A stretch of DNA of 39,022 bases from an uncultured Candidatus Saccharibacteria bacterium (GTDB taxonomy: Bacteria > Patescibacteriota > Minisyncoccia > Phycocordibacterales > UBA9973): positions 1 to 39,022 of the forward strand of contig CAYPAN010000001.1 in the NCBI GenBank assembly GCA_964408725.1, in the 5' to 3' direction. A program made the position numbers and the translations under genes. Every line of letters starts with the position of its first letter. Position 1 is the stretch's first letter. The notes under the pieces are model-generated. The model was not told where the DNA came from and ran no database searches. It saw only the letters and a list, made by a program, of their open reading frames with translations. Below, piece after piece: positions 19,413 to 36,749 of the stretch.

Positions 19413-19415
19413 AAA

Positions 19416-20270: not shown

Positions 20271-20284
20271 AGTATGATGATACC

Positions 20285-21193: not shown

Positions 21194-21653
21194 ATAGAAA
21201 TACCCCACAGGCCACGGAAACATTCAGTGATTCTTTTTTACCTCGCATTGGAATTTCAGCTATTATATCGCATTTTGCAAGTATATTTTTAGGAATACCG
21301 GTAACTTCAGCGCCCACAATAAAAGCATTTTTGTTTTGCAATTTTACTTTTTTATAATCAGCAGAATTCTGCGCTTGCTCAATGCCTAAAATTAAATATT
21401 TCTCCTTTTTTAATTTACCTAGTAAGGCCAATAAACTTTTTCTATGCTCCCAAGGCACAAACTCCTCCGCACCTAAAGCCGATTTGGCCATATCTTTACG
21501 AACTCTGCCGAAACGGTCAAGCGGCGCGGGCGTATAGCCTGTCAAATAAATTTTGTTTATACCGGCGGCATCAGCTGTCCGAAACATCGCGCCGACATTT
21601 GTCACGCTTCGGACATTGTGAATTATTAAAATGTTTTGCTGATTTTTTTTCAT
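21174..21653 (-). CDS. SpoU/TrmH-family RNA 2'-O-methyltransferase
   Basis: 159 aa. SPOUT motifs NVGAMFRTADAAG, FIVGAEVTGI and IPMRGKKESLNVSVACGV. The 3' end overlaps mutM by 20 nt, convergently. Confidence 0.8.
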   Translation of the reverse strand: MKKNQQNILIIHNVRSVTNVGAMFRTADAAGINKIYLTGYTPAPLDRFGRVRKDMAKSALGAEEFVPWEHRKSLLALLGKLKKEKYLILGIEQAQNSADYKKVKLQNKNAFIVGAEVTGIPKNILAKCDIIAEIPMRGKKESLNVSVACGVFLFRVLGV

Positions 21654-21656
21654 TTG

Positions 21657-22310
21657 CTAAAAAAGCTTAGATTGCACATCTTCAAATTTTTCCGGCGGGA
21701 TGTATTCCTCATGCTTTGTCTCTTCAAACTCTCTGGCACTGACCTTCAGGAGGGCCGCTGGCAATTTTTTAAAAGTATCTTCAAACATTTTCATCGCTTC
21801 ATTCCCCCGCAATGCGGCAGCAGGATGGAGCATCGGCAGAACAAAAATACTTGCCCGTCCTCCGGCGGGTTTCTCCACTTTAAAAAGTTTGCCCTGGTCG
21901 CGGGTAATCTTTGCCATCGGCAAAAAGTAATTCATAGAGAACCGGCCGAGCGGCACAATTATTTTCGGATTGATAATATCTACCTGCCGCGCCAGGTAAG
22001 GTTTGTATTTCTCGATTTCTTCTTCGTTCGGGTCGCGGTTCTCCGGCGGACGGCGTTTTACAATATTGGTTATGTAAACATCTCCCTCCTGCCAACCCAA
22101 GTCACGAATGTTTTTACGGAGCAGTTGCCCCGCACGCCCGACAAAGGGGCGTTTTTGCATATCTTCGTTGAAACCGGGAGCTTCTCCGATAAAAAGCACC
22201 TCGCAGTCGGTATTACCTTCGCCGAAAACCAGATTGGATTTTTGCAAGGGCAGAGTCTTATCTTTCTCCATTTTCTGCTTCAATTTACCAAGCTCAGATA
22301 TTTTATCCAT
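21657..22310 (-). CDS. Uracil-DNA glycosylase, family 4
   Basis: LVFGEGNTDCEVLFIGEAPGFNED...PFVGRAGQLL (motif A) and the HPAAALR-type motif B. Confidence 0.85.
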   Translation of the reverse strand: MDKISELGKLKQKMEKDKTLPLQKSNLVFGEGNTDCEVLFIGEAPGFNEDMQKRPFVGRAGQLLRKNIRDLGWQEGDVYITNIVKRRPPENRDPNEEEIEKYKPYLARQVDIINPKIIVPLGRFSMNYFLPMAKITRDQGKLFKVEKPAGGRASIFVLPMLHPAAALRGNEAMKMFEDTFKKLPAALLKVSAREFEETKHEEYIPPEKFEDVQSKLF

Positions 22311-22333
22311 CTATAAATTATATCTCTTATTTC

Positions 22334-23548
22334 TTACTTAAGGAAATTCTTGCCGCGCATTTTTCTATGGTAAGCAATGGCAAACCTGTGCGCCTCGCTA
22401 TTTGCAAGTAATATTTCCTTCTTATGTTTTCGGGTAAGTTTTTCATCACCCATAATTGCCTTTGGTTTATGACGTTCGTCTTTCACAACCGAAACAATCG
22501 GAATTGAAAAACCGGCTTTATTTAAGATATATTTGGCAGTGTTTATTTGAGCCATACCGCCATCTACAACAATCAAGTTAGGATAAGGCCATTCTCTATG
22601 CGCCAGACGTCTTTCCAACATTTCTTTTAAGGCACCCGTGTCGTTTGAAACACTCTGCGTCTTTATTTTGAATTTCCTATATTCATTCTTCTCTACCTCC
22701 CCGTTTTCTATAACGACCATAACGCCAACCATATTTCTGCCTGCCATATGCGCGATGTCATACGCCTCAACACGGATACCTCGGCCGAGGGAAGGGCGCA
22801 GGGACGAAAAAATGAAAGGGTTTCCGGTTTCATTTTTTATTAACGCCACATCATTAATATGTTGCAGGGCAAAAAGCTGTCTTTTTATTTCGCCGGCTTT
22901 TTCAAACTCACCCAGTTTAGAATACGCATTCATTTCTTTCTTAAGATTTTTGAAAATCTGCTTTTTTTTGCCTTTAAAAAACAAAATTATATTTTTGATA
23001 TTCTGTAAATACAGTTTTTTATCGTCCAAATCCGGAATCAGGTTTATTTGCCTGTAAAATTCCATATAATTCTTACTTTTTTCGTCTAAAAATGGAAAAA
23101 TCTTTCTTATTATCTTTATAGCCTCGCGAAGTTGGGAACCGTTCGGATAAGGTCCGAATACTTTATAAAATAGAGACGGTTTTAAATTCTTGCCTCGCAC
23201 TATAATCACTTTTGGCAAGTCTTCTCTAGTTATGCAAATATAATTAAAACTTTTATCGGATTTTTCTTTAGTATTGTATTTCGGCTGGTATTTTTTTATA
23301 AGAGAAGCTTCTAATATAAGCGCTTCAAGCACGTTATCTGTCTCTCGCCAGTCTATTTGGGTTGCTTTAAATATTAAATCCACTAAAAGCGGACCCCTGG
23401 TTTCAATTAAATCTTTTCCAAAATAACTTTTTATCCTATCCCTAAGTGATGTCGCTTTGCCAATATATAAAATCTCTTTTCCTTTGAGAAAAAAATACAC
23501 ACCGGGCTTTTGGGGTATTTTAAGTTTTTTGAAATATTTTATATTCAT
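22334..23548 (-). CDS. uvrC: Excinuclease ABC subunit C, short form lacking the C-terminal (HhH)2 domain
   Basis: GIY-YIG (PGVYFFLKGKEILYIGKATSLRDR), a UVR-like helix (EFEKAGEIKRQLFALQHI) and an RNase-H-like endonuclease domain (IEAYDIAH..., VVDGG, EAHRFAIAYHRK). The protein ends at 404 aa, against about 600 aa for E. coli UvrC. Confidence 0.85.
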   Translation of the reverse strand: MNIKYFKKLKIPQKPGVYFFLKGKEILYIGKATSLRDRIKSYFGKDLIETRGPLLVDLIFKATQIDWRETDNVLEALILEASLIKKYQPKYNTKEKSDKSFNYICITREDLPKVIIVRGKNLKPSLFYKVFGPYPNGSQLREAIKIIRKIFPFLDEKSKNYMEFYRQINLIPDLDDKKLYLQNIKNIILFFKGKKKQIFKNLKKEMNAYSKLGEFEKAGEIKRQLFALQHINDVALIKNETGNPFIFSSLRPSLGRGIRVEAYDIAHMAGRNMVGVMVVIENGEVEKNEYRKFKIKTQSVSNDTGALKEMLERRLAHREWPYPNLIVVDGGMAQINTAKYILNKAGFSIPIVSVVKDERHKPKAIMGDEKLTRKHKKEILLANSEAHRFAIAYHRKMRGKNFLK

Positions 23549-23599
23549 GGTTCTATTTTATTACCATGACCCTGAGATTATCGAATGGGTCATAAAAAA

Positions 23600-26194
23600 T
23601 CATTTACGCAGAGCTTTTTTGAGATACTTCCCGGTATAACTCTTCGGACTATTCGCTATTTCTTCAGGCGTGCCTTTGGCTACCAGATTCCCCCCACTTA
23701 CTCCGCCTTCGGGACCAATATCTATAACATAGTCCGAGCTTTTGATAATATCAAGGTTATGTTCAATCAAAACCACAGTATTCCCTTTTGACACAAGCTT
23801 GTTCAGTACTTCAAGAAGCTTCACCACATCGTCATAATGCAGTCCCACTGTCGGTTCATCAAGAAGATAAATAGTCTTTTCCAAATATGGGCGAAAAAGT
23901 TCGCTGGAAATTTTCACCCGCTGGGCTTCTCCGCCGGAAAGTGTGGTTGCCGACTGGCCAAGCTCCAGATAACCCAGACCCACTCCCGAGAGCGTATACA
24001 AGCGGTCATAGATTGCGGGAATATCTTTAAAAAAGATAAGTCCTTCTTCCACGGTCATATGAAGCACTTCATATATATTTTTTTTCTTATATTTTACCGT
24101 CAGTGTTTCTTTGTCAAAACGTTTTCCGTTGCAGACATCGCAAGTAACGTACACGGTGGGCAAAAAGTGCATCTCCACGGCAATTTGACCATTGCCCTCG
24201 CAGGCTTCACAGCGTCCGCCCTTCACATTAAAAGAAAAGCGGTTGGCTTTCCAGCCGCGAAGACGCGCTTCTTCGGTAGTAGCAAATAAATCTCGGATAT
24301 GGGTAAAAGCGCCCGCATAAGTGGCCAAATTTGAGCGCGGAGTCCTGCCTATCGGGGACTGGTCAATCAAAATAGCGCGCGACAAATATTCAGTGCCGGT
24401 AAATGAAGAACAGTTAAAAATTTTCACTGTGCGATATTTGCGTTCATAACGGGCCTGAAGATTTTTATACAAAATTTCATACATAAAAGAACTCTTGCCG
24501 GAACCGGATACCCCGGTAATGGATGTCATTATGCCCAAAGGAACTTCAACATTTAAATTTTTGATGTTGAAAATTTTCCCGCCTGTTATACGCAACGCTC
24601 CTTTTCCGCCCCGGCGTTTTTCCGGCACCGGAATTTTTATTTCTTCGCGAAGATAAGAAAGGGTTCTGGAATTGTTTGTATTCTTTTTTGCGGTTAATAA
24701 TTCTTCCAGCCATCCGGAAACTATAACTTCGCCTCCGTGCACACCAGCCTTCGGGCCTATATCCACTATATAATCGGACGCGTAAATCGTATCCTCATCG
24801 TGTTCAACAATTAAAATGGTGTTGCCTAAATCACGTAGGTTTTCCAATGTTTTAATCAAACGGTCATTATCGCGTTGATGAAGCCCTATAGTCGGCTCAT
24901 CCAAGACATATAAGGCGCCGACTAATCTAGAGCCCAGCTGGGACGCCAGGCGAATGCGTTGGGCTTCTCCGCCGGAGAGAGTATTGGCTTTACGAGAAAG
25001 CTGTAAATAATCGAGTCCAACATCCAACATAAACTGCAAACGCGCTTCTATTTCACGAACAACGGGCAGAGATATTTCCTTTTCCTGGTCCGATAGCTTT
25101 AAAGTTTTGAAAAATTCCGCTGCCTCTATTATTGTAAACGATGATAATTCAAGAATGTTCTTGCGTTTATGCCCGGCACTGATAAAAACATTTAATGCTT
25201 CCGGGCGCAACCGCGCTCCGTGACAAGCATCACAGGGTTCCTCACCCATAAAATATTTTGTGCCCAAGCCATGGCAAACTTCACAGGCACCATACGGAGA
25301 ATTGAAGGAAAAAAGACGCGGTTCAATTTCCGGAAAAGAAAAACCGTCATTCTTGCAGGCAAATTTCGCGGACATTGTGAACTCTTCTTCGGAACCGAAA
25401 GAAACGGCCACTAAACCGTCGGATTCAATGAGCGCCCGCTCCAAGGCTTCCGCTAATCTGGTGCGACTTTCATCTTTGTGGTCATAAAATTCGTGTACTG
25501 CAAAATGGTCAACCAAAATATCAATATTATGCGTTTTGTTCTTGGAAAGAATTATCTGTTCACGCAATTTTTTCATTACTCCATCCAAGCGAATCTCGGA
25601 AAATCCTTTACCAAGCAAATCATAAAGCAATTGATAATATTCCCCTTTACGGCCCCGGACAATGGGAGAGAAAATATTCATTTCGGTTTCATCCCATTCT
25701 ATACCCATTACAGATTTCTTATTTTTCTTGTTCTTTTCAAGCGCTTTTATTTTTTCCAGGACAAAATTCAAAATTTCCTCGTTTGAAAGTTTTTTAATTT
25801 CTTCTCCACATAGAGGGCAGTGAGGATGCCCGATGCGTGCATACATTACGCGCAGGTAATCATATATTTCGGTAATGGTCGCCACCGTAGAACGCGGATT
25901 ATTGGAACGGGATTTTTGGTCAATGGAAATAGCCGGCGAAAGCCCGGTTATTTCGTCCACATCAGGCTTGGGCATTTGATTCAAAAATTGCCGCGCGTAA
26001 GAAGACAAGGATTCCACATACCTCCTCTGCCCTTCGGCAAAAATTGTGTCAAAAGCAAGAGAGGACTTGCCGGAACCCGAAACACCGGTAATGGCTATCA
26101 TACTGTTGCGTGGCATTTCCACATTTATATTCTTCAAATTATGGGTTCTAGCCCCTTTTATCGTTATTTTATCTATATTTTTATCCAATTTCAT
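23600..26194 (-). CDS. uvrA: Excinuclease ABC subunit A
   Basis: Start at ATG 26194 ([23 protein letters not shown]). Two ABC modules (GVSGSGKSS twice, LSGGEAQR twice) and Cys-rich zinc modules ([15 protein letters not shown]...[14 protein letters not shown]...CDVCNG). Confidence 0.95.
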
Positions 26195-26215
26195 AAAAAT
26201 TAAATAATACCAGAA

Positions 26216-26246
26216 CCACACCCGCCGTCGTTCCTAGGGGGTGTGT
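26216..26246 (-). terminator. Possible uvrB terminator hairpin
   Basis: On the minus strand, CACACCC-(about 15 nt)-GGGTGTG is followed by a T-rich tract. The large loop makes this weak. Confidence 0.35.
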
Positions 26247-26304
26247 ATCTATATTAAGATAAGGAGATTATAACACAAAAAGCCAATTTAACAAAAAAGT
26301 TACA

Positions 26305-28617
26305 TCAAATTTTGATTTTTTCTTTTAAAACAACTATCTCGTCACGCAAGATTGCCGCCGTTTCGAAATCCAGCTCTTTTACCGCTTTATTCATCTCCTT
26401 TTCTTTTATTTTTATTATTTTTTCGTAAACTGTTGTATTTCTTTCTTCATCCGAAAGTAAACTGTTTTTTATAGAATCACTTTCGTTTTTCCCTTTATTA
26501 CTTTTATCTCTGGCAAACGCTTTCTTGAACAATTCAACATCAAGTGCCAATTCCGCATTGACCGTTTTCCCGTGTTCGCTTTCCATTTCCTCGGTTATGT
26601 CCTTAATCTTTTTCATAATCGTTTTCGGCGTGATATTGTGTTTTTTATTGTAAGCAATTTGAATATTACGTCGACGGGTGGTCTCTCCTATCGCCCTCTC
26701 CAGTGAACCCGTCATAACGTCCGCGTAAAGAATGACTTTGCCGTATACATTGCGGGCCGCGCGGCCTATGGTCTGGATTAACGAGGTTTCCGAACGCAAA
26801 AATCCTTCTTTGTCGGCGTCCAGTATGCCGATTAATGCCACTTCCGGCAAATCAAGCCCTTCACGCAGAAGATTTACCCCCACTAAAACATCAAAATCGC
26901 CTTTTCTGAATTGCGTCAGAATTTTTATTCTTTCAATCGTCTTTATATCGCTATGCAAGTATTCCGCTTTTATTTTTTTGTCTTTCAAATAAGTGGAAAG
27001 GTCCTCCGCCATTTTTTTGGTGAGTGTCGTGGCAAGAACACGAAAACCCATCTTGATCGTTTTTTCTATTTCCTTAATAAAATCCTGAATCTGACCCGGA
27101 TAAGGCCCAGAGGTATACTCGGAGGAGTATTCGCTGCGGCCAGAACTTTCTTGCCCTTCCAAGATAGAGTGCGAACGACGGAGAGAATTATCCTGAGCAA
27201 GACTTTCCGAAACCGGCCGAACAGAAATCTCCGGGTCAACAAGCCCGGTTGGACGGATAATCTGTTCCACCATTTGTTCGCTTTGAGCGCGTTCCTGGTC
27301 GGAAGGCGTAGCGCTAGTGTATATGACAGGCCCGATTCTTTCACTAAATTCTTCATATTTTAAAGGTCTGTTGTCTTTGGCCGAAGGCAAGCGAAAGCCA
27401 TATTCCACAAGGGTATTTTTGCGGGAAGCATCTCCCGCGTACATACCCTGGAGCTGTGGCAGGGTGACGTGAGATTCGTCTATGACAGTCAAAAAATCAG
27501 GAATATACTCGGAGGAGTATTCGCTACTGCCAGAACTTTCTTGCCCTTCCAAGATAGAGTGCGAGCGACGGAGAGTATGTTCCTGATTTTTTATATGCGG
27601 AAAATAAGAAAGTAATGTTTCCGGCGGTTCGCCTTCTTTTTTGCCGGATAAATGTCTTGAATAATTTTCAATACCGTTGCAATAACCGACTTCACGAATC
27701 ATAGCTAAATCATAATTTGTCCTTCTTTTAATGCGTTCTGCTTCCAATAATTTTCCTTCTTTCTCAAATTTTTTCAATTGGCTCGTTAATTCTTTTTTTA
27801 TCTCCACCAGCGCTTTCTTTTTCTTCACGTCCTCAGTTATAAAATGTTTCACCGGAAAAATAAACAATGGTTCTTCCTCGCCTGCTCCCGACTTGGGAGG
27901 GCGGGCAGGTTTGATAATCTGTGAAGAAATCGGGTCAATTTTTTTAATTTTTGAAATTAATTCATTTTGTATTTCCACCTGATACATTATTTTTTCAGAT
28001 ATGGGCATAATTTCCACCCGAGAACCGATTGAACGGAAAGTTCCCGGATTTAAGTTGGCATTTGTGCGCTCAAAATGAATTTCAATCAATTTTTTCATTA
28101 AAGCCATTCGGCTTATTTTCATACCGATTTTCAATTTCAAATTAACCTTTTCATATTCCACAGGAGACCCCAAGCCGTAAATGCAAGAAACTGATGCCAC
28201 TATTATCACATCACGTCTGGTGAGCAATGCTTCCGTCGTGGCATGACGCAGACGGTCTATTTCTTTATTGATTTGTGCGTCTTTTTCAATGTATGTGTCT
28301 GACGCCGGCATATAAGCCTCCGGCTGATAATAGTCGTAATATGAAACAAAATAATGCACAGCCGCGTCCGGGAAAAATTGCTTAAATTCCTGTGCAAGCT
28401 GGGCGGCCAGAGTTTTATTGTGTGCTATGACAAGCGTCGGCTTATTATATGCGGCTATCACATTAGCCATTGTAAAAGTCTTACCTGTGCCCGTGGCCCC
28501 TATCAATGTTTGTTTTTTCATTCCCTTTTCAAGCCCATTTAGAAGCTCCGAAATAGCCTTGGGTTGATCTCCCGCTGGCTGAAATGGTTTATGTAGTTTA
28601 AAAATATTTTTTGACAA
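26305..28617 (-). CDS. uvrB: Excinuclease ABC subunit B, carrying two in-frame repeat-element insertions
   Basis: Walker A GATGTGKTF, FVSYYDYYQPEAY, motif II VIDESHVT, GFRLPSAKDNRPL, LLREGLDLPEV, QTIGRAARN and a C-terminal UVR domain. It is 770 aa against about 670 aa for typical UvrB. The two inserts of about 33-36 aa account for most of the excess. Confidence 0.95.
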   Translation of the reverse strand: MSKNIFKLHKPFQPAGDQPKAISELLNGLEKGMKKQTLIGATGTGKTFTMANVIAAYNKPTLVIAHNKTLAAQLAQEFKQFFPDAAVHYFVSYYDYYQPEAYMPASDTYIEKDAQINKEIDRLRHATTEALLTRRDVIIVASVSCIYGLGSPVEYEKVNLKLKIGMKISRMALMKKLIEIHFERTNANLNPGTFRSIGSRVEIMPISEKIMYQVEIQNELISKIKKIDPISSQIIKPARPPKSGAGEEEPLFIFPVKHFITEDVKKKKALVEIKKELTSQLKKFEKEGKLLEAERIKRRTNYDLAMIREVGYCNGIENYSRHLSGKKEGEPPETLLSYFPHIKNQEHTLRRSHSILEGQESSGSSEYSSEYIPDFLTVIDESHVTLPQLQGMYAGDASRKNTLVEYGFRLPSAKDNRPLKYEEFSERIGPVIYTSATPSDQERAQSEQMVEQIIRPTGLVDPEISVRPVSESLAQDNSLRRSHSILEGQESSGRSEYSSEYTSGPYPGQIQDFIKEIEKTIKMGFRVLATTLTKKMAEDLSTYLKDKKIKAEYLHSDIKTIERIKILTQFRKGDFDVLVGVNLLREGLDLPEVALIGILDADKEGFLRSETSLIQTIGRAARNVYGKVILYADVMTGSLERAIGETTRRRNIQIAYNKKHNITPKTIMKKIKDITEEMESEHGKTVNAELALDVELFKKAFARDKSNKGKNESDSIKNSLLSDEERNTTVYEKIIKIKEKEMNKAVKELDFETAAILRDEIVVLKEKIKI
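27105..27198 (-). repeat. Hairpin repeat element, copy A (in frame in uvrB, between VRPVSE and GQIQDFIKEI)
   Basis: The 68-nt core at 27118-27185 matches copy B at 65/68 positions and the polA copy at 63/68. It encodes SLRRSHSILEGQESSGRSEYSSE. The flanking arms are only weakly complementary. Confidence 0.85.
27491..27592 (-). repeat. Hairpin repeat element, copy B (in frame in uvrB, 8 codons upstream of the DESH box)
   Basis: The 68-nt core is at 27508-27575. The 20-nt arms at 27491-27510 and 27573-27592 are reverse complements at 19/20 positions. Total length is 102 nt, or 34 codons. Confidence 0.9.
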
Positions 28618-28645
28618 TATTTTATATTAACACTTTTTAGAATTT

Positions 28646-28774
28646 TTATTGAATATCGTAGTAGTTTTCAGGAGAATAAACCTCATATCCTTTCATAATA
28701 ATTATATAAGCAAAGACAGAACTTATTATTGTAAATATAAGCATAAATATGAATGTTTTATTAGTTGCGGACAT
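28646..28774 (-). CDS. Possible 42-aa hydrophobic miniprotein
   Basis: Hand-translated as MSATNKTFIFMLIFTIISSVFAYIIIMKGYEVYSPENYYDIQ. It has one TM-like span, lies just upstream of uvrB, and is below the ORF-track length cutoff. Confidence 0.25.
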   Translation of the reverse strand: MSATNKTFIFMLIFTIISSVFAYIIIMKGYEVYSPENYYDIQ

Positions 28775-28867
28775 AGTTTTAATTATAACATTTATTTATT
28801 TCAAAAAGTAAAAATCTCTTGATTTTTGAGCACATTTCCTATATATTTGAGTTGCTTGTCAAATTTC

Positions 28868-28915
28868 CATAGTTAATGTTTCCGCCCGTAGCTCAGTTGT
28901 AGCGGATTCAACTGA
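28868..28915 (+). pseudogene. Decayed partial duplicate of the tRNA-Lys 5' region
   Basis: CATAGTTAAT (28868-28877) and CCGCCCGTAGCTCAGTTG (28882-28899) are identical to 28942-28951 and 28955-28972 of the intact gene 73-74 nt downstream. The remainder no longer folds as a tRNA. Confidence 0.6.
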
Positions 28916-28954
28916 CTATTTACAAAAAGTTATTAAAACCGCATAGTTAATTAA

Positions 28955-29027
28955 CCGCCCGTAGCTCAGTTGGTAGAGCAGATCCCTTTTAAGGATAAGG
29001 TCGTCGGTCCGATCCCGACCGGGCGGA
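28955..29027 (+). tRNA. tRNA-Lys (anticodon UUU)
   Basis: Hand-folded. Acceptor CCGCCCG/CGGGCGG with discriminator A. D arm GCTC-AGTTGGTA-GAGC. Anticodon arm GATCC-CTTTTAA-GGATA (27:43 G/A mismatch). T arm GTCGG-TCCGATC-CCGAC. Oddities are the C1:G72 pair and a C at T-loop position 55. Confidence 0.8.
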
Positions 29028-29032
29028 CAAAT

Positions 29033-29680
29033 TTAAAAAGCATCCAGTAAAAATTGCTCAAATACAGACTCGGCGTCTTTGCCATCTTTGCGGGCTTCCG
29101 GCAGAAGGTAAGAAAGCTTGCCGGCAAAATTTTCAAGCTCGGAAGAAGTATATTTTCGGAAATCTTTTTTCAGTATCATATCTTTGGTTTTCCAAAACAA
29201 AACACCGGCGAGTTCTTCCAGGGCCACGTCTTTTTCCAAGGCTTGCCTAAAATGAACCCATAAATTAAGCTTATCCCGCTCCCCAAATGCATTGGCCAGC
29301 ATAAAACTGTTAAATCTTTCCTTTTTCTCTTTAGGTAATTCAAGTATACTGATTTTCGCTTTTACTTTTTCAAAAGCATCTAAAATTTCTTTATTTAACT
29401 TTCCTTCTAAAAAAATAAAATCATTACCGGATTCACTTATTATATTCAACTTATTTAAAATAAAATTAAGCGTTTCTTCCTTTTCAAAAATATTTGTAAA
29501 AATTACCGCGCACTTTTTAAAAAACAGTCCAGCGCCGGAGTAAAAACTCTCCGTTTCCATTTCTTTAAAGTCATTTTTGCCGATAAAAAAAGTTTCCGTA
29601 CCGGCTGGCATAGACTTTATTAATTTTTCATAACTCTCGTGTTTATTTTTTGCATCATCTCCACAAAAAAGATAAATCAT
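29033..29680 (-). CDS. DNA polymerase III delta subunit-like protein (short HolA)
   Basis: IYLFCGDD start and a helical C-terminal half (FMLANAFGERDKLNLWVHFRQALEKDVALEELAGVLFWKTKDMI) resemble HolA. It is only 215 aa. Confidence 0.5.
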   Translation of the reverse strand: MIYLFCGDDAKNKHESYEKLIKSMPAGTETFFIGKNDFKEMETESFYSGAGLFFKKCAVIFTNIFEKEETLNFILNKLNIISESGNDFIFLEGKLNKEILDAFEKVKAKISILELPKEKKERFNSFMLANAFGERDKLNLWVHFRQALEKDVALEELAGVLFWKTKDMILKKDFRKYTSSELENFAGKLSYLLPEARKDGKDAESVFEQFLLDAF

Positions 29681-29681
29681 A

Positions 29682-30167
29682 TTAGAGTTTCACTGATTTT
29701 TTATATTCCAAATACGGAGCGCCGTATTTTTCCGCAAGAATTCTTTCTTCTTTTTTGAGAAAGAAAAATTTGGCCACAAAAATTGAAATTATTGAAAAAA
29801 TAACCACAAAGAAAGAATCGGCTACGATGCCAAAACCCAACACTAAAAGAAAAAGTCCAAAATGCGTCGGGCTTCTGGTAAACCTATAAGGCCCGCGGTA
29901 AAATGTCTCCTTGCTTAGGCTCTCCTTCTCCAAATTACGGGAGGATTTTTGTGCCCAAAATACTAAAAGCGTACCGAGAACCAAAAAAACAATGCCAATG
30001 GGCATCAAATCCAGCTTCCCAAAAATTTTAAGGGGAAAAACAAAATCCAAGAGAAGCCCGAGCAAAAAGGAGATAAAAAAACAAAGATACGAATGCGCTA
30101 AAATTTTATGCACTTTATTTTTGTTTTTACCTCCAAATTGTTCTGCTGTAGTTCCTATTTGCATCAT
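29682..30167 (-). CDS. Isoprenylcysteine carboxyl / phospholipid methyltransferase-family membrane protein
   Basis: Four or five TM spans and the YRFTRSPTHFG...L motif of the ICMT/PEMT family, with a C-terminal EERILAEKYGAPYLEYKK. Confidence 0.7.
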   Translation of the reverse strand: MMQIGTTAEQFGGKNKNKVHKILAHSYLCFFISFLLGLLLDFVFPLKIFGKLDLMPIGIVFLVLGTLLVFWAQKSSRNLEKESLSKETFYRGPYRFTRSPTHFGLFLLVLGFGIVADSFFVVIFSIISIFVAKFFFLKKEERILAEKYGAPYLEYKKSVKL

Positions 30168-30191
30168 TTTATAATAGCATATAATGTACCA

Positions 30192-32645
30192 TTATTTAAC
30201 CTCTCCAAAATTATTTCCGGAACCGGAATGTACTAAGAGCGGAATACTAGTTTCATAATGTAAATATGAGCGTTTTAGCACTGTTTGCATAGCATTTTTT
30301 ATCACTTTTCCCGCCTCTTCAAGTACTTTATCTTCCACTTCATAAACTAATTCATCGTGAATTTGAAGCACCAGATGAGCTTTTTCTAAAATATTCGCTT
30401 TTTTCAAGTCTTCTTCCGCGTATCTTATGGCCAGTTTTATAATATCGGCCGTGGCTGTGCCCTGGACTGGCGCGTTTATGGCCGTGCGTTCAGCCATATT
30501 TTTCAAAAATGGAATTCGTGAATTTATATTGGGAAAATATCGGCGCCTGCCGAATAATGTTTCCGTATATGAATGTTTCATAGCAAAAACTTTTACCTCT
30601 TCCAGATAATCCCGCACGCCACTAAATTGATTGAAATAATTGTCGTAAAATTTTTGCGCTTCAGGGCGGGTACCTCCTAAACTTTTACGCAAAGCTGAAA
30701 CCCCCATACCGTAAATAATGCCAAAATTTATCACTTTCGCTTTGCGCCGCATTTCAGCGTCCACCTTATCTATAGGCACGTTAAAAACAAAAGAAGCCAC
30801 TCCGGCGTGAATATCTTTACCTTCACGAAATATTTGCGTCATTTTTTTATCTCCAGAAAGCATCGCCACAACCCGAAGTTCAATCTGGCTGTAGTCAAAA
30901 GCCAAAAGTTTACAGCCTTTTCCGGCTATAAAACCATTCCTTATTTTTTTGCCCAGTTCTGTTTTTATCGGCAAATTCTGCAAGTTTGGGTCTTGGGAAG
31001 AAAATCTGCCGGTCGTTGTGCCATTCTGCAAAAATTTAGCGTGCAGACGACCGTCTTGCGCCACCATTTTGGGAATTACGTCAATATAAGTGGAAAGCAG
31101 TTTTTGCAACTCTCTATAAGACAATATTTCTTTTATGATTGGATTATCTTCTTCCAGTTCTTCCAGCACTGAAACTTTGGTCGAAAAGGAGCCGCTGGCG
31201 CTTTTTTTCTTACTTGATTTCATTCCCATTTTACCGAAAATAACTTCTCCCAATTGTTTAGGTGAATTAATATTAAATTCCGTTCCTGCCATTTTGTAAA
31301 TTTTCCCAGTTAGCTTGTCCAATTCTTTATGGTATTCCTCTGATAAATTTTCAAAATATTTTTTATCTATCAATATGCCATAATCCTGCATTTCTTTTAC
31401 TATGGGCATTATGGGTCTTTCTATTTCTTCATAAACTTTTTCCAGTCCTTTTTCTTTCAATTGCTTAAAAACATACTCTCGCGCTGTTTTAAAATCATTC
31501 GTCTTTCCAAAATGCAAAATGTCTTCCAAAGAGGGATTGGCAATGTCCGAATTTAAGAGCCATAGGGCAATGGAGGTTTCCTGAAGCTCCTTTTCGTCCA
31601 CAGTATGTACCCCTTGATGATTGTTCTCGGAGGAGTATTCGCTGCTACCAGAAATATCTTGCCCTTCCAAGATAGAGTGCGAGCGACGGAGAGAATTATC
31701 ATCAAGGGGTACTTTTTCTTTTTGAAACTTCCCTGCAAAAAAACTTTTCAATCGCGCAAATAAACTTCTAAATTCAAACAAGGAAAAAATATTCTCAATT
31801 TTTTTCAAATCGGCATTCTGCCAAAAAGTATTTTTCGGCAATGTAAAATTTATCGGCGCATCAGTCCTGATTTTGGCCAGAGTTTTGGAAAACAAAGCTT
31901 CTTCCTCGTTGTTTTTTATAAGTTCCAATATTCTTGGAGAAATATCATTTTTAATGAAAATACTTTCGTCTTTTTTTAATTTTTTATAAATTTCTTCTAT
32001 AGTTCCGAAATTAACAATAAGATTGGTGGCTGTTTTTTCACCAATACCCTTTATACCAATAATATTATCCGACGGGTCGCCCCGCAGACCTTTGTAATCC
32101 GGTAAAAGTTTCGGCTTAAATCCAAACCTACCAATCACCTTTTCCTCGTTGTACAAGATAGTGTCATTAATTCCTTTTTTTAATGTATAGACTTGCACTT
32201 TTTCTCCGTCTACCAATTGCATTGTGTCCATATCACCCGAGGCAATAATTATATTTATTTTTTTGTCTTTTTTTAATTCTTCCACTATAGTACCCAGCAC
32301 ATCATCCGCCTCAAAACCCGGAGCATCATAAATAGGAATATTAAACGCCTCAAAAATCTGCCTGGAATTTTTCAGTTGCAGAATAAGAGCATCATCGGTT
32401 TTTGCTCTTCCAGCTTTGTATCCTTCATACGCTTCGTGTCTGAAAGTTTTTTGTGGTAAATCATAACAGGCTACAATATAGTCCGGTTTTAAATCGGTAA
32501 TTATTTTCATCAGCATACTGGTGAGTCCATACAAGGCTCCTGTGGGCTCGCCCTTGGACGATAAAAACTCCGGTAAGGCGTGATAAGCACGATGTATTAT
32601 CGCGTGAGCATCCAGCAACACTAATGTCTTTTTATCTTTCTCCAT
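30192..32645 (-). CDS. polA: DNA polymerase I, carrying one in-frame repeat-element insertion
   Basis: Start at ATG 32645 (MEKDKKTLVLLDAHAIIHRAYHALP, 5'-nuclease domain). Pol A motifs: LLAFDYSQIELRV (A), RRKAKVINFGIIYGM (B), LQIHDELVYEV (C). The upstream 46 codons of the ORF track lack homology and overlap the pilB start. Confidence 0.95.
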   Translation of the reverse strand: MEKDKKTLVLLDAHAIIHRAYHALPEFLSSKGEPTGALYGLTSMLMKIITDLKPDYIVACYDLPQKTFRHEAYEGYKAGRAKTDDALILQLKNSRQIFEAFNIPIYDAPGFEADDVLGTIVEELKKDKKINIIIASGDMDTMQLVDGEKVQVYTLKKGINDTILYNEEKVIGRFGFKPKLLPDYKGLRGDPSDNIIGIKGIGEKTATNLIVNFGTIEEIYKKLKKDESIFIKNDISPRILELIKNNEEEALFSKTLAKIRTDAPINFTLPKNTFWQNADLKKIENIFSLFEFRSLFARLKSFFAGKFQKEKVPLDDNSLRRSHSILEGQDISGSSEYSSENNHQGVHTVDEKELQETSIALWLLNSDIANPSLEDILHFGKTNDFKTAREYVFKQLKEKGLEKVYEEIERPIMPIVKEMQDYGILIDKKYFENLSEEYHKELDKLTGKIYKMAGTEFNINSPKQLGEVIFGKMGMKSSKKKSASGSFSTKVSVLEELEEDNPIIKEILSYRELQKLLSTYIDVIPKMVAQDGRLHAKFLQNGTTTGRFSSQDPNLQNLPIKTELGKKIRNGFIAGKGCKLLAFDYSQIELRVVAMLSGDKKMTQIFREGKDIHAGVASFVFNVPIDKVDAEMRRKAKVINFGIIYGMGVSALRKSLGGTRPEAQKFYDNYFNQFSGVRDYLEEVKVFAMKHSYTETLFGRRRYFPNINSRIPFLKNMAERTAINAPVQGTATADIIKLAIRYAEEDLKKANILEKAHLVLQIHDELVYEVEDKVLEEAGKVIKNAMQTVLKRSYLHYETSIPLLVHSGSGNNFGEVK
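31607..31712 (-). repeat. Hairpin repeat element, polA copy (in frame in the linker after the 5'-nuclease domain)
   Basis: The 68-nt core is at 31626-31693. The 22-nt arms at 31607-31628 and 31691-31712 pair with 20 Watson-Crick pairs and 1 G/T pair out of 22. It encodes VPLDDNSLRRSHSILEGQDISGSSEYSSENNHQGV. Confidence 0.9.
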
Positions 32646-32682
32646 TGTGTAAATTATAGCATTATTGCTATAATTTATAATT

Positions 32683-34380
32683 ATGGCGGACTTTGACGAA
32701 GAAAAACAAAATAAGCAATTGGATGATTTACACAGAGAGGAAGAAGAACAGCTGGTAGCAATGCTGGCGGAATCAAAATACAAGCTTCCTTATATCGACC
32801 TGTCTCGTTTGGGCATAGATAATGAAGCACTTCGAGCAATATCCGAAAAGGATGCCCGTGAACTGAAGGTGGCCCCTTTTAAACTTTTTGGGAAAAATAT
32901 TTTTATAGCGGTACGTTCCCCTTCAGATGACCTTTTGGCAAAACTTAAAGACCAAATAGAGAGAAAGGATTTAATCCCTACTTTTTATATGGTGTCGTTG
33001 GCATCCTTAGAAAAAGTTTGGGGCAGATATAAAGAGTTATCGTTGGCAGAGAGTTCTAAGGTTGGGGGCGTGGACATTTCTGCGGAAGTTTTAAGAGAGG
33101 TGGCAAAAGATATAAAAACAATAAAAGACATAGAAAAATTAATTGCGGATATAAATGAAGGAAATTCGATACACAAAGTTTCACATTTATTGGAAATAAT
33201 ATTAGCCGGAGCGATAGCCATAAAAGCTTCCGATATACATATAGAACCCCAGCAGGAAAAAAGCAGGTTGAGAATTAGATTGGATGGTGTCCTTCACGAT
33301 GTTATATTTTTTGAAAATAATGTTTATCATCTTCTTAACTCGCGAATAAAGCTTCTCTCTGGAATGAAATTAACTTCAACGATAGCGCAGGACGGACGTT
33401 TTAGTATTGTGGAAGAAGCGGAAGAAATAAGCATTCGTTCTTCTATGATTCCCGGGGCATACGGCGAATCAATCGTTATGCGTATTTTGGACCCGAAATC
33501 AATCCAGGTAAAACTTGAAGATTTGGGCATAGAACCTTTTCTATTTTCTATAATAGAAGAGGAAATCGCGAAGCCAAACGGCCTTATATTAGTCACTGGT
33601 CCTACTGGTTCCGGAAAAACGACCACTCTTTACGCATTTTTGAGAAAAATTTATTCTCCGGAAATAAAAATAATAACCATTGAAGACCCGATAGAATATC
33701 ATTTGACAGGCATAACACAGACTCAAACAAATGACGAAAAAGGATACACATTTTTGGAAGGCTTGCGTTCCGGCTTGCGTCAGGACCCAGACGTGGTAAT
33801 GATAGGTGAAATACGAGACGCGGAAACAGCCAAAATCGCCATAGAGGCGGCTCTAACGGGACATATGGTATTTTCTACTTTACACACCAACAATGCGGCC
33901 GGAGTCATTCCGCGTTTGATTGACCTTGATGCCAATCCAAAAATTATGGTTTCGGCTTTATCTCTTTCCATTGCCCAACGTCTAGTGCGCAAGCTTTGTC
34001 CATTTTGTAAAATCGAAAAAGCTCCCGATGAGAAAGAAGCGAAAACTATGAAAATAATAATGGACGGGATAAAAGAAGAAGGTAAAAATCTTTCAAATTA
34101 TAATATAAATCCCGATGCGCCTATTAAATTCTTTTCTCCTGTCGGCTGTGATAAATGCAATGTGACGGGATACAAAGGACGAATAGGTATTTTTGAAGCA
34201 ATTAAAACCGACGAAGCTATAGAAAAAATAATTCCGGAAAATCCAAGCGAGCGTGAAATAAAAAAAATTGCCCGGGCTCAAGGAATCCTTTCTATGCGTC
34301 AAGATGGCATAGTAAAAATATTAAACGGTATTACTTCATTTGAAGAAGTGCAAAGCGTAGTTGACCTGTTGGAGGAATAA
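32683..34380 (+). CDS. pilB: Type IV pilus / type II secretion assembly ATPase (GspE/PilB family)
   Basis: N-terminal GspE_N-like domain, Walker A GPTGSGKTTT, Asp/His boxes (IMIGEIRD, VFSTLHTN) and a tetra-Cys motif (CPFCK...CDKCNVTGYKGR). Confidence 0.9.
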   Translation: MADFDEEKQNKQLDDLHREEEEQLVAMLAESKYKLPYIDLSRLGIDNEALRAISEKDARELKVAPFKLFGKNIFIAVRSPSDDLLAKLKDQIERKDLIPTFYMVSLASLEKVWGRYKELSLAESSKVGGVDISAEVLREVAKDIKTIKDIEKLIADINEGNSIHKVSHLLEIILAGAIAIKASDIHIEPQQEKSRLRIRLDGVLHDVIFFENNVYHLLNSRIKLLSGMKLTSTIAQDGRFSIVEEAEEISIRSSMIPGAYGESIVMRILDPKSIQVKLEDLGIEPFLFSIIEEEIAKPNGLILVTGPTGSGKTTTLYAFLRKIYSPEIKIITIEDPIEYHLTGITQTQTNDEKGYTFLEGLRSGLRQDPDVVMIGEIRDAETAKIAIEAALTGHMVFSTLHTNNAAGVIPRLIDLDANPKIMVSALSLSIAQRLVRKLCPFCKIEKAPDEKEAKTMKIIMDGIKEEGKNLSNYNINPDAPIKFFSPVGCDKCNVTGYKGRIGIFEAIKTDEAIEKIIPENPSEREIKKIARAQGILSMRQDGIVKILNGITSFEEVQSVVDLLEE

Positions 34381-34384
34381 AAAA

Positions 34385-34526
34385 ACACTAATCTCTAAAC
34401 AATCCTTTCAAAACTAAGTTCCGAAAGTAACAAATCATTAAAGGATAGCACCAGCAACTCGTGAGAGCGCCAAAACGTCCTATGCAAACTTGTAGAACCG
34501 GTGGCTGATTGCTTAGAGATTAGTGT
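34385..34526 (+). ncRNA. Unassigned structured element (candidate ncRNA, complex terminator or MITE) closed by a 20-bp stem
   Basis: ACACTAATCTCTAAACAATC (34385-34404) pairs with GATTGCTTAGAGATTAGTGT (34507-34526) at 19/20 positions. The interior contains a GNRA-capped hairpin CTC-GTGA-GAG and further short helices. CTTCTTTTT follows. Confidence 0.4.
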
Positions 34527-34674
34527 CTTCTTTTTAAAAAACAAAAGAGACTTTTAAATCTCTATAAATTAATTATACTATATGGAATATCAGGCAAATG
34601 CTATAATGTGGATAGCACTGTTGATACTCTGTTGATAAATGTACTACTTCTAGAGTATAGCATAATATAAAAAA

Positions 34675-35718
34675 ATGTCAAGCGAAAAAGACAAAGAAAA
34701 AAAGAAAATACCCCTGGAAAAAGTGTCCGGTGTTGGAGATTCTTTCTTAGACCAGACCTTAAGACCCACCCGCTGGGACGAATATATCGGCCAAAAACAC
34801 ATAAAAGACAACGTTAAAATCCTGCTACGGGCCGCCGAAGAGAGAGGGCATATTCCGGAGCATATACTTTTTTACGGCCCTCCGGGCTTGGGAAAAACCA
34901 CCTTGGCGCACCTGATAGCCCACGAGACAGGCAAACAAATAAAGATTACGTCCGGGCCGGCTATTGAAAAAGTGGGCGATTTGGCTTCAATTCTCACAAA
35001 TTTATCTTCAGGCGACATACTTTTCATAGACGAAATTCACAGGCTCAATAAAACAGTGGAAGAGATACTCTACCCTGCTATGGAGTCCGGCGTCTTGGAT
35101 ATAATTATCGGTAAAGGACCTTCCGCCCGCACTATCCAGCTGGACCTACCGCCTTTCACTTTGATTGCCGCCACTACCCGTGTCGCCCTTGTCTCTTCCC
35201 CCTTACGTTCACGCTTCTCCGGCGGAGTCTTCAGATTGGAATTTTATTCAAATGAAGAAATCGGGGAAATTGTAAAAAGGTCCAGTAAATTGCTGAATAC
35301 AAAATTGGATGAAGGGGCCTTAAAAGAAATCGCCAAGAGAAGCCGGTTTACTCCCCGCACCGCAAATTATTTTTTGAAGAGAGTGCGTGACTTCGCCCAA
35401 GTGCACAAAAAAAGTTTAGACCAAAAGACGGTCAAGGAGGCGCTCAATATGCTCGCCATTGATGATATCGGCTTAAATTCTTCCGACAGAAAGTTCTTAG
35501 AGATATTGATAGATAAATTCGGCGGCGGACCGGTTGGGTTAAAAACAATCGGCGCGGCTATGTCCGAAGAAGAAGCCACGGTGGAAGAAGTGATTGAACC
35601 TTATTTAATTCAGCTTGGACTCTTAGAACGCACCTCCCGTGGCCGCGTGGCCACTCCTAAAGCATATAAACATTTAGGTTTTGATCTAAAAGAAGAGAAA
35701 CAAAATAAACTTTTGTAA
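34675..35718 (+). CDS. ruvB: Holliday junction branch migration ATPase RuvB
   Basis: LRPTRWDEYIGQ, Walker A GPPGLGKTT, Walker B LFIDEIHRL, sensor TTRVALVSSPLRSRF and a C-terminal winged helix (EPYLIQLGLLERTSRGR). Confidence 0.95.
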   Translation: MSSEKDKEKKKIPLEKVSGVGDSFLDQTLRPTRWDEYIGQKHIKDNVKILLRAAEERGHIPEHILFYGPPGLGKTTLAHLIAHETGKQIKITSGPAIEKVGDLASILTNLSSGDILFIDEIHRLNKTVEEILYPAMESGVLDIIIGKGPSARTIQLDLPPFTLIAATTRVALVSSPLRSRFSGGVFRLEFYSNEEIGEIVKRSSKLLNTKLDEGALKEIAKRSRFTPRTANYFLKRVRDFAQVHKKSLDQKTVKEALNMLAIDDIGLNSSDRKFLEILIDKFGGGPVGLKTIGAAMSEEEATVEEVIEPYLIQLGLLERTSRGRVATPKAYKHLGFDLKEEKQNKLL

Positions 35719-35724
35719 ATAATT

Positions 35725-36264
35725 ATGTCCGGACACAACAAATGGAGCCAAATAAAACATAAAAAAGATATTACTGATGCTAAGAAAAGCAAGATTTTCT
35801 CTAAATTAGTGCGTTATATTGGTGTAGAGGCAAAACTGGCAAAAGGCGATATAAACGCGCCAGGGCTTCGCGCCGCGATTGAAAAAGCAAGGAAAGTAAA
35901 TATGCCCTCGGAAAATATTGAAAGGGCTATAAAGAAAGCTTCAGAGCCGGGAGCTCAAATGGACGTAATCACTTACGAGGCTTATGGCCCGGGCGGAGTC
36001 GGAATCATTATAGAAACCCTTACAGACAGCCGGAACAGGACGGCGCAAGATATAAAACACATACTTTCAAAAAACGGCTTCGCGCTAGGAGGTATCGGGT
36101 CTGTCTCCTGGTCTTTCACCAAAGAAAAAACGCCGGAAGGAATAATCTGGAAACCAAATATGTTTACCCCTGTTTCGGATACCGATTTGGAATTATTAGA
36201 CAAACTCGTAGACGAATTGGAGGAGAATGACGATGTTCAAGATGTTTTTACTAATGCGGAATAA
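35725..36264 (+). CDS. yebC: YebC/PmpR-family protein, short form
   Basis: MSGHNKWSQIKHKKDITDAKKSKIFSKL start and YEAYGPGGVGIIIETLTDSRNRT core. It is 179 aa against about 245 aa in E. coli YebC (recalled). The middle subdomain appears to be missing. Confidence 0.85.
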   Translation: MSGHNKWSQIKHKKDITDAKKSKIFSKLVRYIGVEAKLAKGDINAPGLRAAIEKARKVNMPSENIERAIKKASEPGAQMDVITYEAYGPGGVGIIIETLTDSRNRTAQDIKHILSKNGFALGGIGSVSWSFTKEKTPEGIIWKPNMFTPVSDTDLELLDKLVDELEENDDVQDVFTNAE

Positions 36265-36269
36265 AAATT

Positions 36270-36749
36270 ATGAGAATTTTAGGAATTGACCCCGGATATG
36301 AGCGATTGGGCGTCGCCATACTTGAAAAAAACAAAAATGAGAAAAAGGAGACAGTCTTGTTCTCGGAGTGTTTTAAAACTTCCGCTAAGTTGGAATTTTC
36401 CGAAAGATTATTTTTAATCGGAAAAGAAATAAAAAATATAATAAAAAAATTCAAGCCAGAAGTTTTGGCCATTGAAACCTTGTTTCTGACCACCAACCAA
36501 AAAACAGTGATGCATGTGGCAGAAGTGCGCGGAGTAATTATTTATGAAGCTTCATCCGCCGGACTCAAAATTTTTGAGGCCTCCCCACCCCAAATAAAAA
36601 TAGCCACAACCGGTTATGGAAAAGCGAATAAGGAGCAAGTGATGAAAATGGTAAAAATATTGGTTGAAATAGACAACCTCAAAAAGTCGGACGACGAGCT
36701 GGATGCTATTGCCACTGCCTTAACCGCCTTTGCCCATATAAGGTTCTAG
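36270..36749 (+). CDS. ruvC: Crossover junction endodeoxyribonuclease RuvC
   Basis: MRILGIDPGYERLGVAI (catalytic Asp), AIETLF (Glu) and DELDAIATAL (Asp). Confidence 0.9.
   Translation: MRILGIDPGYERLGVAILEKNKNEKKETVLFSECFKTSAKLEFSERLFLIGKEIKNIIKKFKPEVLAIETLFLTTNQKTVMHVAEVRGVIIYEASSAGLKIFEASPPQIKIATTGYGKANKEQVMKMVKILVEIDNLKKSDDELDAIATALTAFAHIRF

Follow-up and report, generated by a model that had tools for sequence, protein, structure and literature searches.

In-frame hairpin elements with a conserved core and covarying, site-specific arms in polA, uvrB and other genes of Patescibacteria

The polA gene in a 39,022-nt stretch of DNA from an uncultured Candidatus Saccharibacteria bacterium (contig CAYPAN010000001.1; hereafter, the window) is interrupted in frame by a long hairpin, the core of which recurs twice in the uvrB gene of the same window, flanked in one of these copies by arms of a different sequence that pair as well. 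The question raised by this locus is why arms that differ from copy to copy should remain complementary to each other. Comparison of 28 copies makes it seem clear that the hairpin belongs to a family of short, non-autonomous, in-frame hairpin repeats of Patescibacteria, akin to the Rickettsia palindromic elements (RPEs) and one of several such families, which occupies tolerant loops and linkers of housekeeping genes. The reading that we prefer for the stems, and to which we give a probability of about one half, is that a DNA-level process, in which the hairpin templates its own copying (template switching during replication, or quasi-palindrome correction), lengthens and mends them.

The element in polA and its parts are as follows (window positions).

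30192..32648, minus strand: host gene polA (domains: 5'-3' exonuclease, family A polymerase)
31607..31712, minus strand: whole hairpin element, read in the polA frame as VPLDDNSLRRSHSILEGQDISGSSEYSSENNHQGV; covariance-model match of 125.7 bits
31607..31628, plus-strand sequence: left arm, 22 nt, GTACCCCTTGATGATTGTTCTC; the inner ~6-9 nt (..GTTCTC) are family-wide, the outer part is peculiar to the polA site
31629..31690: conserved core, 62 nt, within which a small hairpin of 4-7 bp (CTTG-CCCTTC-CAAG) forms and TTCGC pairs with GCGAR
31691..31712, plus-strand sequence: right arm, 22 nt, GAGAATTATCATCAAGGGGTAC

The arms were present where the first-pass annotation of this DNA, made from the letters alone, had placed them: a repeat finder reported 22 nt, 91% complementary, with a 62-nt spacer. 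Of their 22 pairs, 20 are Watson-Crick, one is G·T and one is T·T, in agreement with what had been claimed, and the outer 15 are free of mismatches. Folding of a 120-nt polA stretch predicted a single long hairpin on either strand (RNA: −48.0 kcal/mol, z = −5.7, for the plus strand; −46.3 kcal/mol, z = −6.0, for the minus strand), and none of 200 shuffles folded as well as the RNA of the element. As DNA, the two strands gave z = −5.5 and −5.8. The insert peptide had been quoted correctly, and its assignment to the linker behind the 5'-nuclease domain held: the insert covers about residues 312-346 of PolA (spanned by SHSILEGQDISGSSEYSSENNHQGVHTVDEK), after the Pfam 5'-nuclease domains (8-272) and before the polymerase domain (430-816), inside a segment (298-399) that fails to align with Taq polymerase. 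The mechanically called polA open reading frame (ORF) starts at TTG 32783 and overlaps a divergent PilB-like ORF that begins at 32683; a more probable start is ATG 32648, since the protein read from there (MEKDKKTLVLLDAH...) can be aligned with Taq polymerase at the N-terminus.

The core was found exactly three times in the window (three matches to a core 25-mer, against 0 expected), and a covariance model detected no further copy of the element there. The other two copies lie in uvrB.

26305..28617, minus strand: host gene uvrB, carrying two copies of the element
27491..27592, minus strand: uvrB copy B, with 20-nt arms AAAAAATCAGGAATATACTC and GAGTATGTTCCTGATTTTTT, 95% complementary; core at 27511-27572
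27094..27209, minus strand: uvrB copy A, with an intact core at 27121-27182 and degenerated arms; no significant hairpin

All three copies are read on the coding strand of the host in one common frame and encode LRRSHSILEGQ(E/D)xSG(S/R)SEYSSE. By comparison with Bacillus caldotenax UvrB (2fdc), which has neither insert, those of the window UvrB are its residues 341-373, between YFP and DFL just ahead of helicase motif II, and to residues 470-504, between RP(T) and (K)GQI. The stem of copy A is lost (DNA fold z = 0.06). That about half of the arm positions differ between polA and uvrB copy B was borne out when the sequences were read against each other, 10 of 20 aligned positions being identical.

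Exact scans with core 18-20-mers located true copies at 10 loci from genomes and 16 from metagenomes (denoted here by L numbers). Three more diverged ones, in rsmA (L039), in a fragment of polA (L040) and at another site in uvrA (L009), were added by a profile search together with the covariance model. In all, this gave 28 distinct copies at nine host sites in about 20 Patescibacteria assemblies.

polA site: 14 copies, each in a different assembly
uvrB site A and uvrB site B: two host sites
uvrA site 1 (L008) and uvrA site 2 (L009)
carA C-terminus (L011)
rsmA (L039)
cca, the CCA-adding enzyme gene (L019, L038)
L016:82-187: copy directly 3' of the rnhA stop codon, which overlaps the first bases of its arm

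The stem measured 20-24 bp in 27 of the 28 copies. When 25 copies were aligned on the core, 83.3% of the stem cells were paired, compared with 65.0% in shuffles, and cells changed on both sides numbered 209, compared with 79. The covariation score was 0.534 as opposed to 0.169, a level attained by none of 500 shuffles; when the 3' partners were displaced by 1-3 columns, only 38-47% of the cells paired. Counting outward from the core, pairs 1-21 were formed in 80-100% of the copies and pair 22 in 64%, and pairing beyond was at the level of chance. Two zones can be distinguished in the stem. The inner 6-9 bp are family-wide, CTC/GAG, T-A and A-T recurring in 18-24 of the 25 copies (CTC/GAG and T-A in 24). 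The outer 11-15 bp are peculiar to each site, nearly every copy having its own arm sequence, and nearly every outer position shows all four types of Watson-Crick pair.

Copies that occupy the same site in different species (14 pairs, 294 stem positions) were also compared. The pair was unchanged at 188 positions, and it was kept through a change on both sides at 74. One-sided changes accounted for 32 positions, of which 17 kept the pair and 15 left it unpaired in one species. The two-sided changes frequently came in contiguous runs. Since the species concerned differ at 31-67% of their four-fold degenerate sites, unconstrained arms would no longer pair. The divergence of the core did not correlate with the number of stem mismatches (Spearman rho = 0.02), which rules out a joint, age-related decay of arms and core. 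Thus, the first-pass claim that the stem matters rather than its sequence was upheld by the lengths of the stems and by the excess of compensated over one-sided changes, and in this larger set the arms neither fell into a few fixed subfamilies nor were frequently non-complementary. The description of the difference between polA and uvrB copy B as compensatory variation can be retained in part only. Both stems do pair, but they are not products of the compensatory evolution of one ancestral stem, because only the inner ~6-9 bp are shared, while the outer ~11-15 bp are site-specific and derive partly from host flank.

A conserved core surrounded by covarying stems is the standard signature of a structured nucleic acid. 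The covariation could therefore be classical compensatory evolution in a selected functional hairpin, acting as RNA (mRNA or antisense) or as single-stranded DNA recognized by a protein. Such a hairpin could serve the element, as the recognition site of a mobilizing enzyme acting in trans, or the host, for instance in an RNase III-type control of DNA-repair mRNAs. We regard this as a possible account, though one with the odds against it. In its favor, the core is conserved at the nucleotide level: substitutions outside the stretch fixed by the search patterns numbered 37, 42 and 47 at codon positions 1, 2 and 3, and core divergence between the listed nearest-neighbor copies was 0-14%, compared with the 31-67% at four-fold sites of the compared species. 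This even spread, with cores far below synonymous divergence, places the constraint, or else a recent common ancestry, on the nucleic acid; it rules out the peptide as the conserved entity. We infer that the Ser/Glu-rich peptide is a passenger, because conservation sits at the nucleotide level. It is also in line with a function that repair or replication genes contain or adjoin six of the nine sites (two in uvrA, two in uvrB, polA and rnhA), but uvrA, uvrB and polA are adjacent, so this enrichment may reflect local copying. Other observations speak against a selected hairpin. The stem of uvrB copy A has been lost while core and gene are intact, and the element has no match in Rfam: with Rfam 15, the whole window gave only two tRNAs at the gathering threshold, and the element itself, searched at E ≤ 10, gave a spurious 10-bit match (E = 1.5). 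A described RNA family, for which no score came near gathering, was accordingly set aside.

The origin of the outer arms became apparent when filled and empty sites were compared. The hairpin is ~102-108 nt long, whereas the net insertion is only ~81-99 nt. PolA linkers typically have 55 residues with the element and 27-31 in the shortest homologues; this difference means that ~81-84 nt were inserted, in agreement with the core plus 9-11-nt inverted ends. The family-specific unit is thus ~80-84 nt, consisting of the 62-nt core and inverted ends of 9-11 nt, and the outer ~10 bp of the 20-24 bp stem are flanking host sequence. This is most easily seen at uvrB site B, where one arm ends in CCT GAT TTT TT, the PDF(L) codons that are conserved in all UvrB proteins, and the opposite arm encodes a non-conserved KNQE, the reverse complement of these same codons. 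In the window, the arm at 27491-27510 (plus strand) is the complement of the coding-strand sequence GAGTATATTCCTGATTTTTT, and the host codons (P)DF(L), just ahead of helicase motif II (DESH), fall within it. The non-host arm tracks synonymous variants of the host codons, GATTTTTT going with AAAAAATC in the window and GACTTCCT with AGGAAGTC in L021.

uvrB site B, L021: host codons CCC GAC TTC CT; opposite arm AGGAAGTCGG
uvrB site B, L007 and L037: host codon GAC, with one G·T wobble there

L037 has a different and longer inner arm at this site, and yet its stem terminates by pairing with the PDF codons; element and flank contribute ~15 + 8 bp, compared with 9 + 11 bp in the window, the total being kept. 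A comparable arrangement was found at uvrB site A, where the PGQI codons lie within the stem in L001/L034 and L005, and where a synonymous change of CCT to CCC has its counterpart on the opposite arm, in which Q is replaced by R.

These observations fit a process in which the hairpin serves as its own template. If it formed in single-stranded DNA, a nascent strand could snap back and copy the opposite side. Template switching of this type would extend the stem into the flank, and where one side is a constrained host coding sequence, it is the free side that would be overwritten or added to. Mismatches would be mended in the same way and would then resemble compensatory substitutions, and the core could occasionally be inverted. 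Template switching is known to create reverse-complement copies of nearby sequence and to fix stem pairing (PMC8794818). Mirrored host codons on the opposite arm are what this copying of adjacent sequence would leave, and the runs of two-sided changes are expected because one such event alters several paired positions at once. The process would also act independently of the state of the core and of the transcription context, which fits the absence of a correlation with core divergence (rho = 0.02) and the intact stems of L016 and of the inverted-core copy in L019. Decay of the stem of uvrB copy A without harm to the gene is equally compatible with it.

The arms could instead have been made at integration, by repeated independent insertion at preferred sites with ~10 nt of target copied in inverted form and no later upkeep of the stem. 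This would account for outer arms that are site-specific and contain host codons, for the nearly constant total length of the stem, and for the finding that two versions of the inner arm at uvrB site B (L037 on the one hand, the window, L006 and L007 on the other) pair with the same PDF codons. The cores, far less diverged than synonymous sites of the hosts, also look as they would in young insertions. Nevertheless, we consider this explanation doubtful. The host share of the stem varies (~8, 11 or up to 19 nt), and arms at the same site diverge gradually and on both sides together, for which one old insertion followed by maintenance is simpler. No case was found in which a recently filled site is empty in an otherwise near-identical genome, an enzyme for such integration was not seen here, and neither a mechanism nor an enzyme that integrates with inverted copying of the target is known.

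Information on the movement of cores came from cca, in which L019 (5498-5614) and L038 (838-954) carry the element at an identical position, between ...SRRL and KKKYTFYGHE. The two cores are in opposite orientations, both being 63 nt long, and the arms match at 13 of 22 positions in a hand comparison; the in-frame readings are ...QRSIHNGDNKSCPSKIECERRRV... in L019 and ...LRRSHSILEGQDPKLSQRILLRAN... in L038. Most simply, the core was inverted in place by an exchange between its inverted arms, a DNA-level event to which template switching is mechanistically close. The alternative is independent insertion with target-derived arms.

The positions occupied by the element also receive other hairpins. 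At uvrB site B, L005 and L010 have an unrelated palindromic in-frame insert with arms CCCCGAAGCYGGGCTT and different loops, the arms of the two differing by one double change from T-A to C-G, and L009 has a 30-nt hairpin. Other hairpins were found at uvrB site A in L006, L007 and L009, those of L007 and L009 looking multi-branched (two inner hairpins on one outer stem). In the polA linker of L034 (4558-6999), there is a hairpin with ~28-nt arms starting CAGAATCCTGATTTAGA and a different core. Among the 120 closest PolA homologues, 42 linkers contained the core peptide of the present family and ~8 diverged versions of it, ~55 had a different recurrent insert peptide, of which there were at least four kinds (e.g., KESFGAGLAGVGDPENRGPEKTLL, NPAEFSQVLGSPGPRTPARPFENSL and NLAEFARVLGSPAQNSLEERAQPDQLANSL, from among P0023-P0125), and ~6 were short (27-31 residues) and apparently empty. 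A second insert family (…GSLS.RAR.ALPL….CETP…) was present in the polA linker of P0069 and P0090 as well as at uvrB site A of L009, so that the occupation of two or more genes is not confined to a single hairpin family.

This patchy occupancy, with families swapped at identical positions in close relatives, bears on both alternatives. It is readily understood if arms are made by repeated integration. On the other hand, L009 and L034 show the lowest four-fold divergence in polA among the listed pairs (31%), and yet their entire polA hairpins differ, arms included; this speaks against outer arms that reside in the host, and it rules out, for polA, that such arms are resident host hairpins taking different cores into their loop. 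For a selected hairpin, unrelated families or nothing at the same polA and uvrB positions mean that any host function tied to this core is dispensable. That several families of hairpin cassettes insert by an undescribed mechanism, which at integration or in an obligatory later step copies ~10 nt of adjacent host DNA in inverted form, gives stems of two helical turns that consist partly of host codons and continually remodels surface loops of PolA, UvrA and UvrB, is an improbable extension of the integration scheme.

The host reading frame is preserved throughout. The host ORF stays open, with no stop codon, in all 27 genic copies, and the inserts, measured against empty-site orthologues, were all multiples of 3 (81, 81, 93 and 126 nt at uvrB site A; 96 nt in four copies and 99 nt at uvrB site B). 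No preference for multiples of 3 was seen in the hairpin lengths themselves (102-108 nt), and in L019 and L038, where the core is 1 nt longer, the frame is still restored. One frame is common to all eight genic sites, the exception being the inverted-core copy of L019 in cca. In the non-genic copy of L016, this frame contains a TAA. Of the 28 copies, 22 have another sense frame open as well, and 16 have one open antisense frame. The uniform choice probably reflects tolerance for the hydrophilic, Ser/Glu-rich reading. Genic copies would thus be translated as a loop of 27-35 residues.

A further possibility is that the hairpin marks a segment excised from the mRNA, a double-strand-specific RNase cutting the stem and the ends being religated, so that the element would be silent in the protein. 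The covariation-kept long terminal stem would suit such a role, and stem-bounded intervening sequences are present in bacterial 23S rRNA. This explanation is nonetheless very improbable. All the genic copies are in frame without stops, including the inverted core and the cores with 1-nt indels; the hairpin length shows no preference for multiples of 3; excision at uvrB site B would delete conserved host residues (PDF) beside helicase motif II; and the stem-less copy A sits in an intact uvrB. Introns, inteins and RNA-excised intervening sequences were rejected on the same kind of evidence, the frame being always kept and the stem including PDF(L) and PGQI codons; for an intein, an insert of 27-35 residues is moreover too short.

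Several points weigh against stem repair by template switching, or against the picture of a mobile, translated element. The first concerns the uniform total of 20-24 bp, which is reached with varying shares of element and host, and which points to a length-measuring mechanism or to selection, a purely mutational process being expected to spread more widely. A length of about two helical turns, whatever the host share, speaks for a selected hairpin. Second, 11 of the 25 copies, at five sites and in several species, lack a Watson-Crick match at pair seven counted from the core, which implies that correction is not fast everywhere; a weak pair at a fixed internal position again suits a functional stem. 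Third, there is an imbalance between the strands. The wobble pair was, as the first-pass annotation had noticed, a G·T on the plus strand in both the polA copy and uvrB copy B, which had been taken as a weak hint that pairing matters at the DNA level or on the antisense strand. Over pairs 0-21, G·T exceeded A·C by 31 to 14 (binomial p = 0.016; base composition of the strands uncontrolled) on the strand that carries GGAGGAG…CGACGGA, which is the plus strand of the window and antisense to the host gene in most copies. Hand recounts gave 27:11 when the boundary column was left out together with the two copies that are degenerate or misaligned, and ~24:10 once mismatches shared by descent were collapsed. 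The excess itself persists in these recounts and hints at selection acting on one of the two single-stranded forms, but it stays suggestive, and the favored strand, mostly antisense to the host gene, is sense in L019, at odds with a selected hairpin. Fourth, the conservation of the core in spite of near-saturated synonymous sites, for which template switching within the hairpin cannot account, calls for selection, ongoing mobility or exchange between genomes. The constant stem length, the conserved core and the G·T excess are thus in favor of either a selected, functional hairpin or an insertion reaction by which the stem is built. As to the wider picture, translation is suggested by the continuity of the ORF, and mobility by the several occupied sites and the patchy distribution; no transposase or other mobilizing gene was present among the genes of the window (whole genomes were not searched).

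The element appears to be rare in each genome. The scans gave 1-3 exact core matches per assembly, and in the sampled genomes copies cluster in the uvrA-uvrB-polA neighborhood. The copy 3' of rnhA (L016) has its core inverted relative to that gene and is followed by a T-run, so that this hairpin could be a terminator. Fourteen loci were discarded as chance 18-20-mer matches lacking the remaining core (L003, L013, L014, L018, L020, L024, L025, L027, L029, L030, L032, L033, L035 and L036). A profile of the three window peptides, run against 1.84 billion cluster representatives, gave two real matches only, the polA and rsmA fragments, the representatives being mostly without insert. A shared-word search with a 57-residue query made of two peptide versions returned two candidates and no true match. 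The element was not found in viral contigs, where a single chance 18-mer match was obtained; a phage vector is thus unsupported. The three cores of the window are mutual nearest neighbors, differing at 3-5 of 42 sites, which might hint at concerted evolution within one genome; the L006 core at uvrB site B is, over the same 42 sites, identical to the polA core of L009, another species.

The genes of the window are ruvA, an amidase gene, fpg, a SpoU methylase gene, udg, uvrC, uvrA, uvrB, tRNA-Lys, two small genes and polA, followed by a PilB-like ATPase gene, ruvB, yebC, ruvC and a class I aminoacyl-tRNA synthetase gene. The nearest PolA homologues were 76-88% identical and came from organisms named Parcubacteria, Nomurabacteria and Paceibacterota. 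Repair and recombination genes (ruvA, fpg, udg, uvrC, uvrA, uvrB, polA, ruvB, yebC and ruvC) are densely clustered in ~18 kb (18825-36749), and every copy of the element in the window falls inside this cluster. The uvrC ORF (22334-23548) encodes only 404 residues; UVR and RNase H-like endonuclease domains were found in it at E ≤ 1e-5, and GIY-YIG and C-terminal HhH domains were not found at that threshold. The GC skew of the window merely tracks gene orientation and is uninformative on the direction of replication. Two other inverted repeats were observed. One, between the PilB-like gene and ruvB (34376-34535), has 29-nt arms, 86% complementary and 102 nt apart; it adopts a closed multi-branch fold (RNA z = −3.8), with a T-run behind it, and is not matched by any Rfam family at the gathering threshold. 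It may represent a further repeat family or encode a small RNA. The second (5096-5190; 18 nt, 94% complementary, 59-nt spacer) is at the very start of an ApbE-family ORF (5093-5836).

The presence of palindromic DNA, in frame, within essential genes has been regarded as peculiar to Rickettsia, and the present family extends it to the Candidate Phyla Radiation (CPR). A literature search on in-frame palindromic elements in CPR, Parcubacteria or Patescibacteria retrieved nothing relevant. While the kind of element is already known from RPEs and in-frame MITEs (miniature inverted-repeat transposable elements), the combination appears to be new: the lineage, a conserved center with covarying site-specific arms, host codons in the stem, and hairpin families that compete for loop positions. 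Loop positions of PolA and UvrB that are filled by this family, filled by another or empty provide a natural test case. Their comparison bears on selection versus templated mutation, and hence on the use of covariation to call functional RNAs. If the capture of host flank is mechanistic, it would be a source of new loops in highly conserved enzymes of minimal genomes. The element may also explain some puzzling insertions in CPR proteins, and it calls for caution in annotation and in covariation-based RNA discovery.

Among known systems, the closest are the RPEs (RPE-1 to RPE-8; Ogata et al. 2000), described in the review PMC2229807 as stem-loops of 105-146 bp that are fused in frame in conserved genes. 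Both groups comprise repeats of ~100-150 nt with a long predicted stem-loop, in frame in conserved housekeeping genes and also outside genes, with several families coexisting in one lineage of small-genome bacteria; the present elements are ~100-nt single stem-loops inserted in frame at positions that are empty in orthologues. The likeness is one of analogy. The hosts here are Patescibacteria rather than Rickettsia, only the inner ~6-9 bp of the stem are family-wide, with an outer half that is site-specific and contains host codons, and copy number appears low (1-3 exact core matches per assembly), with clustering in uvrA-uvrB-polA. Classical MITEs (Correia/NEMIS, ERIC, RUP; PMC2229807, PMC10969869) are likewise small and non-autonomous, with inverted ends and stem-loops, and are sometimes fused to ORFs. 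However, their terminal inverted repeats are conserved between copies, which in the present element holds for the inner 6-9 bp and not for the outer 11-15 bp, and they are accompanied by direct target-site duplications, whereas the flanks of the present element appear to be inverted repeats of each other: at uvrB sites A and B, where filled and empty sites were compared by eye, direct repeats of more than ~3 nt were not evident, and the flanks looked like inverted complements. MITEs also differ in that no parent insertion sequence or transposase was found for the present element among the window genes.

REP/REPIN sequences, mobilized by RAYT (PMC3733652), are hairpin repeats in which structure matters and whose mobility is thought to proceed via single-stranded DNA hairpins. 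They have conserved arms, a variable loop, an extragenic location and a GTAG or CGTC tag. The present element, with its conserved center, variable arms and intragenic location, has the opposite pattern and is not a member of that group. It is likewise the reverse of the attC site of integrons, in which conserved outer R boxes flank a variable center at cassette boundaries, and it lies inside housekeeping genes. The intervening sequences of 23S rRNA (helices 25 and 45) are stem-bounded segments of ~100-150 nt, borne by the rRNA and cut out by RNase III. They resemble the element in occupying a few fixed hot spots, in their sporadic occurrence, in sequences that vary between taxa and in a terminal stem that is kept; the element differs in being located in protein-coding genes and in staying in frame. 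Finally, hairpins shaped by template switching (PMC8794818, PMC5453318) share with the element the nearby reverse-complement copies, the 'compensatory' changes of several bases per event, and the making or extension of perfect stems. Template switching is a mutational mechanism rather than a family of elements, and it leaves unexplained the 62-nt core shared by many sites and the constant length of the stem; it is as the process acting on the arms of an RPE-like family that it would best account for the stems described here.

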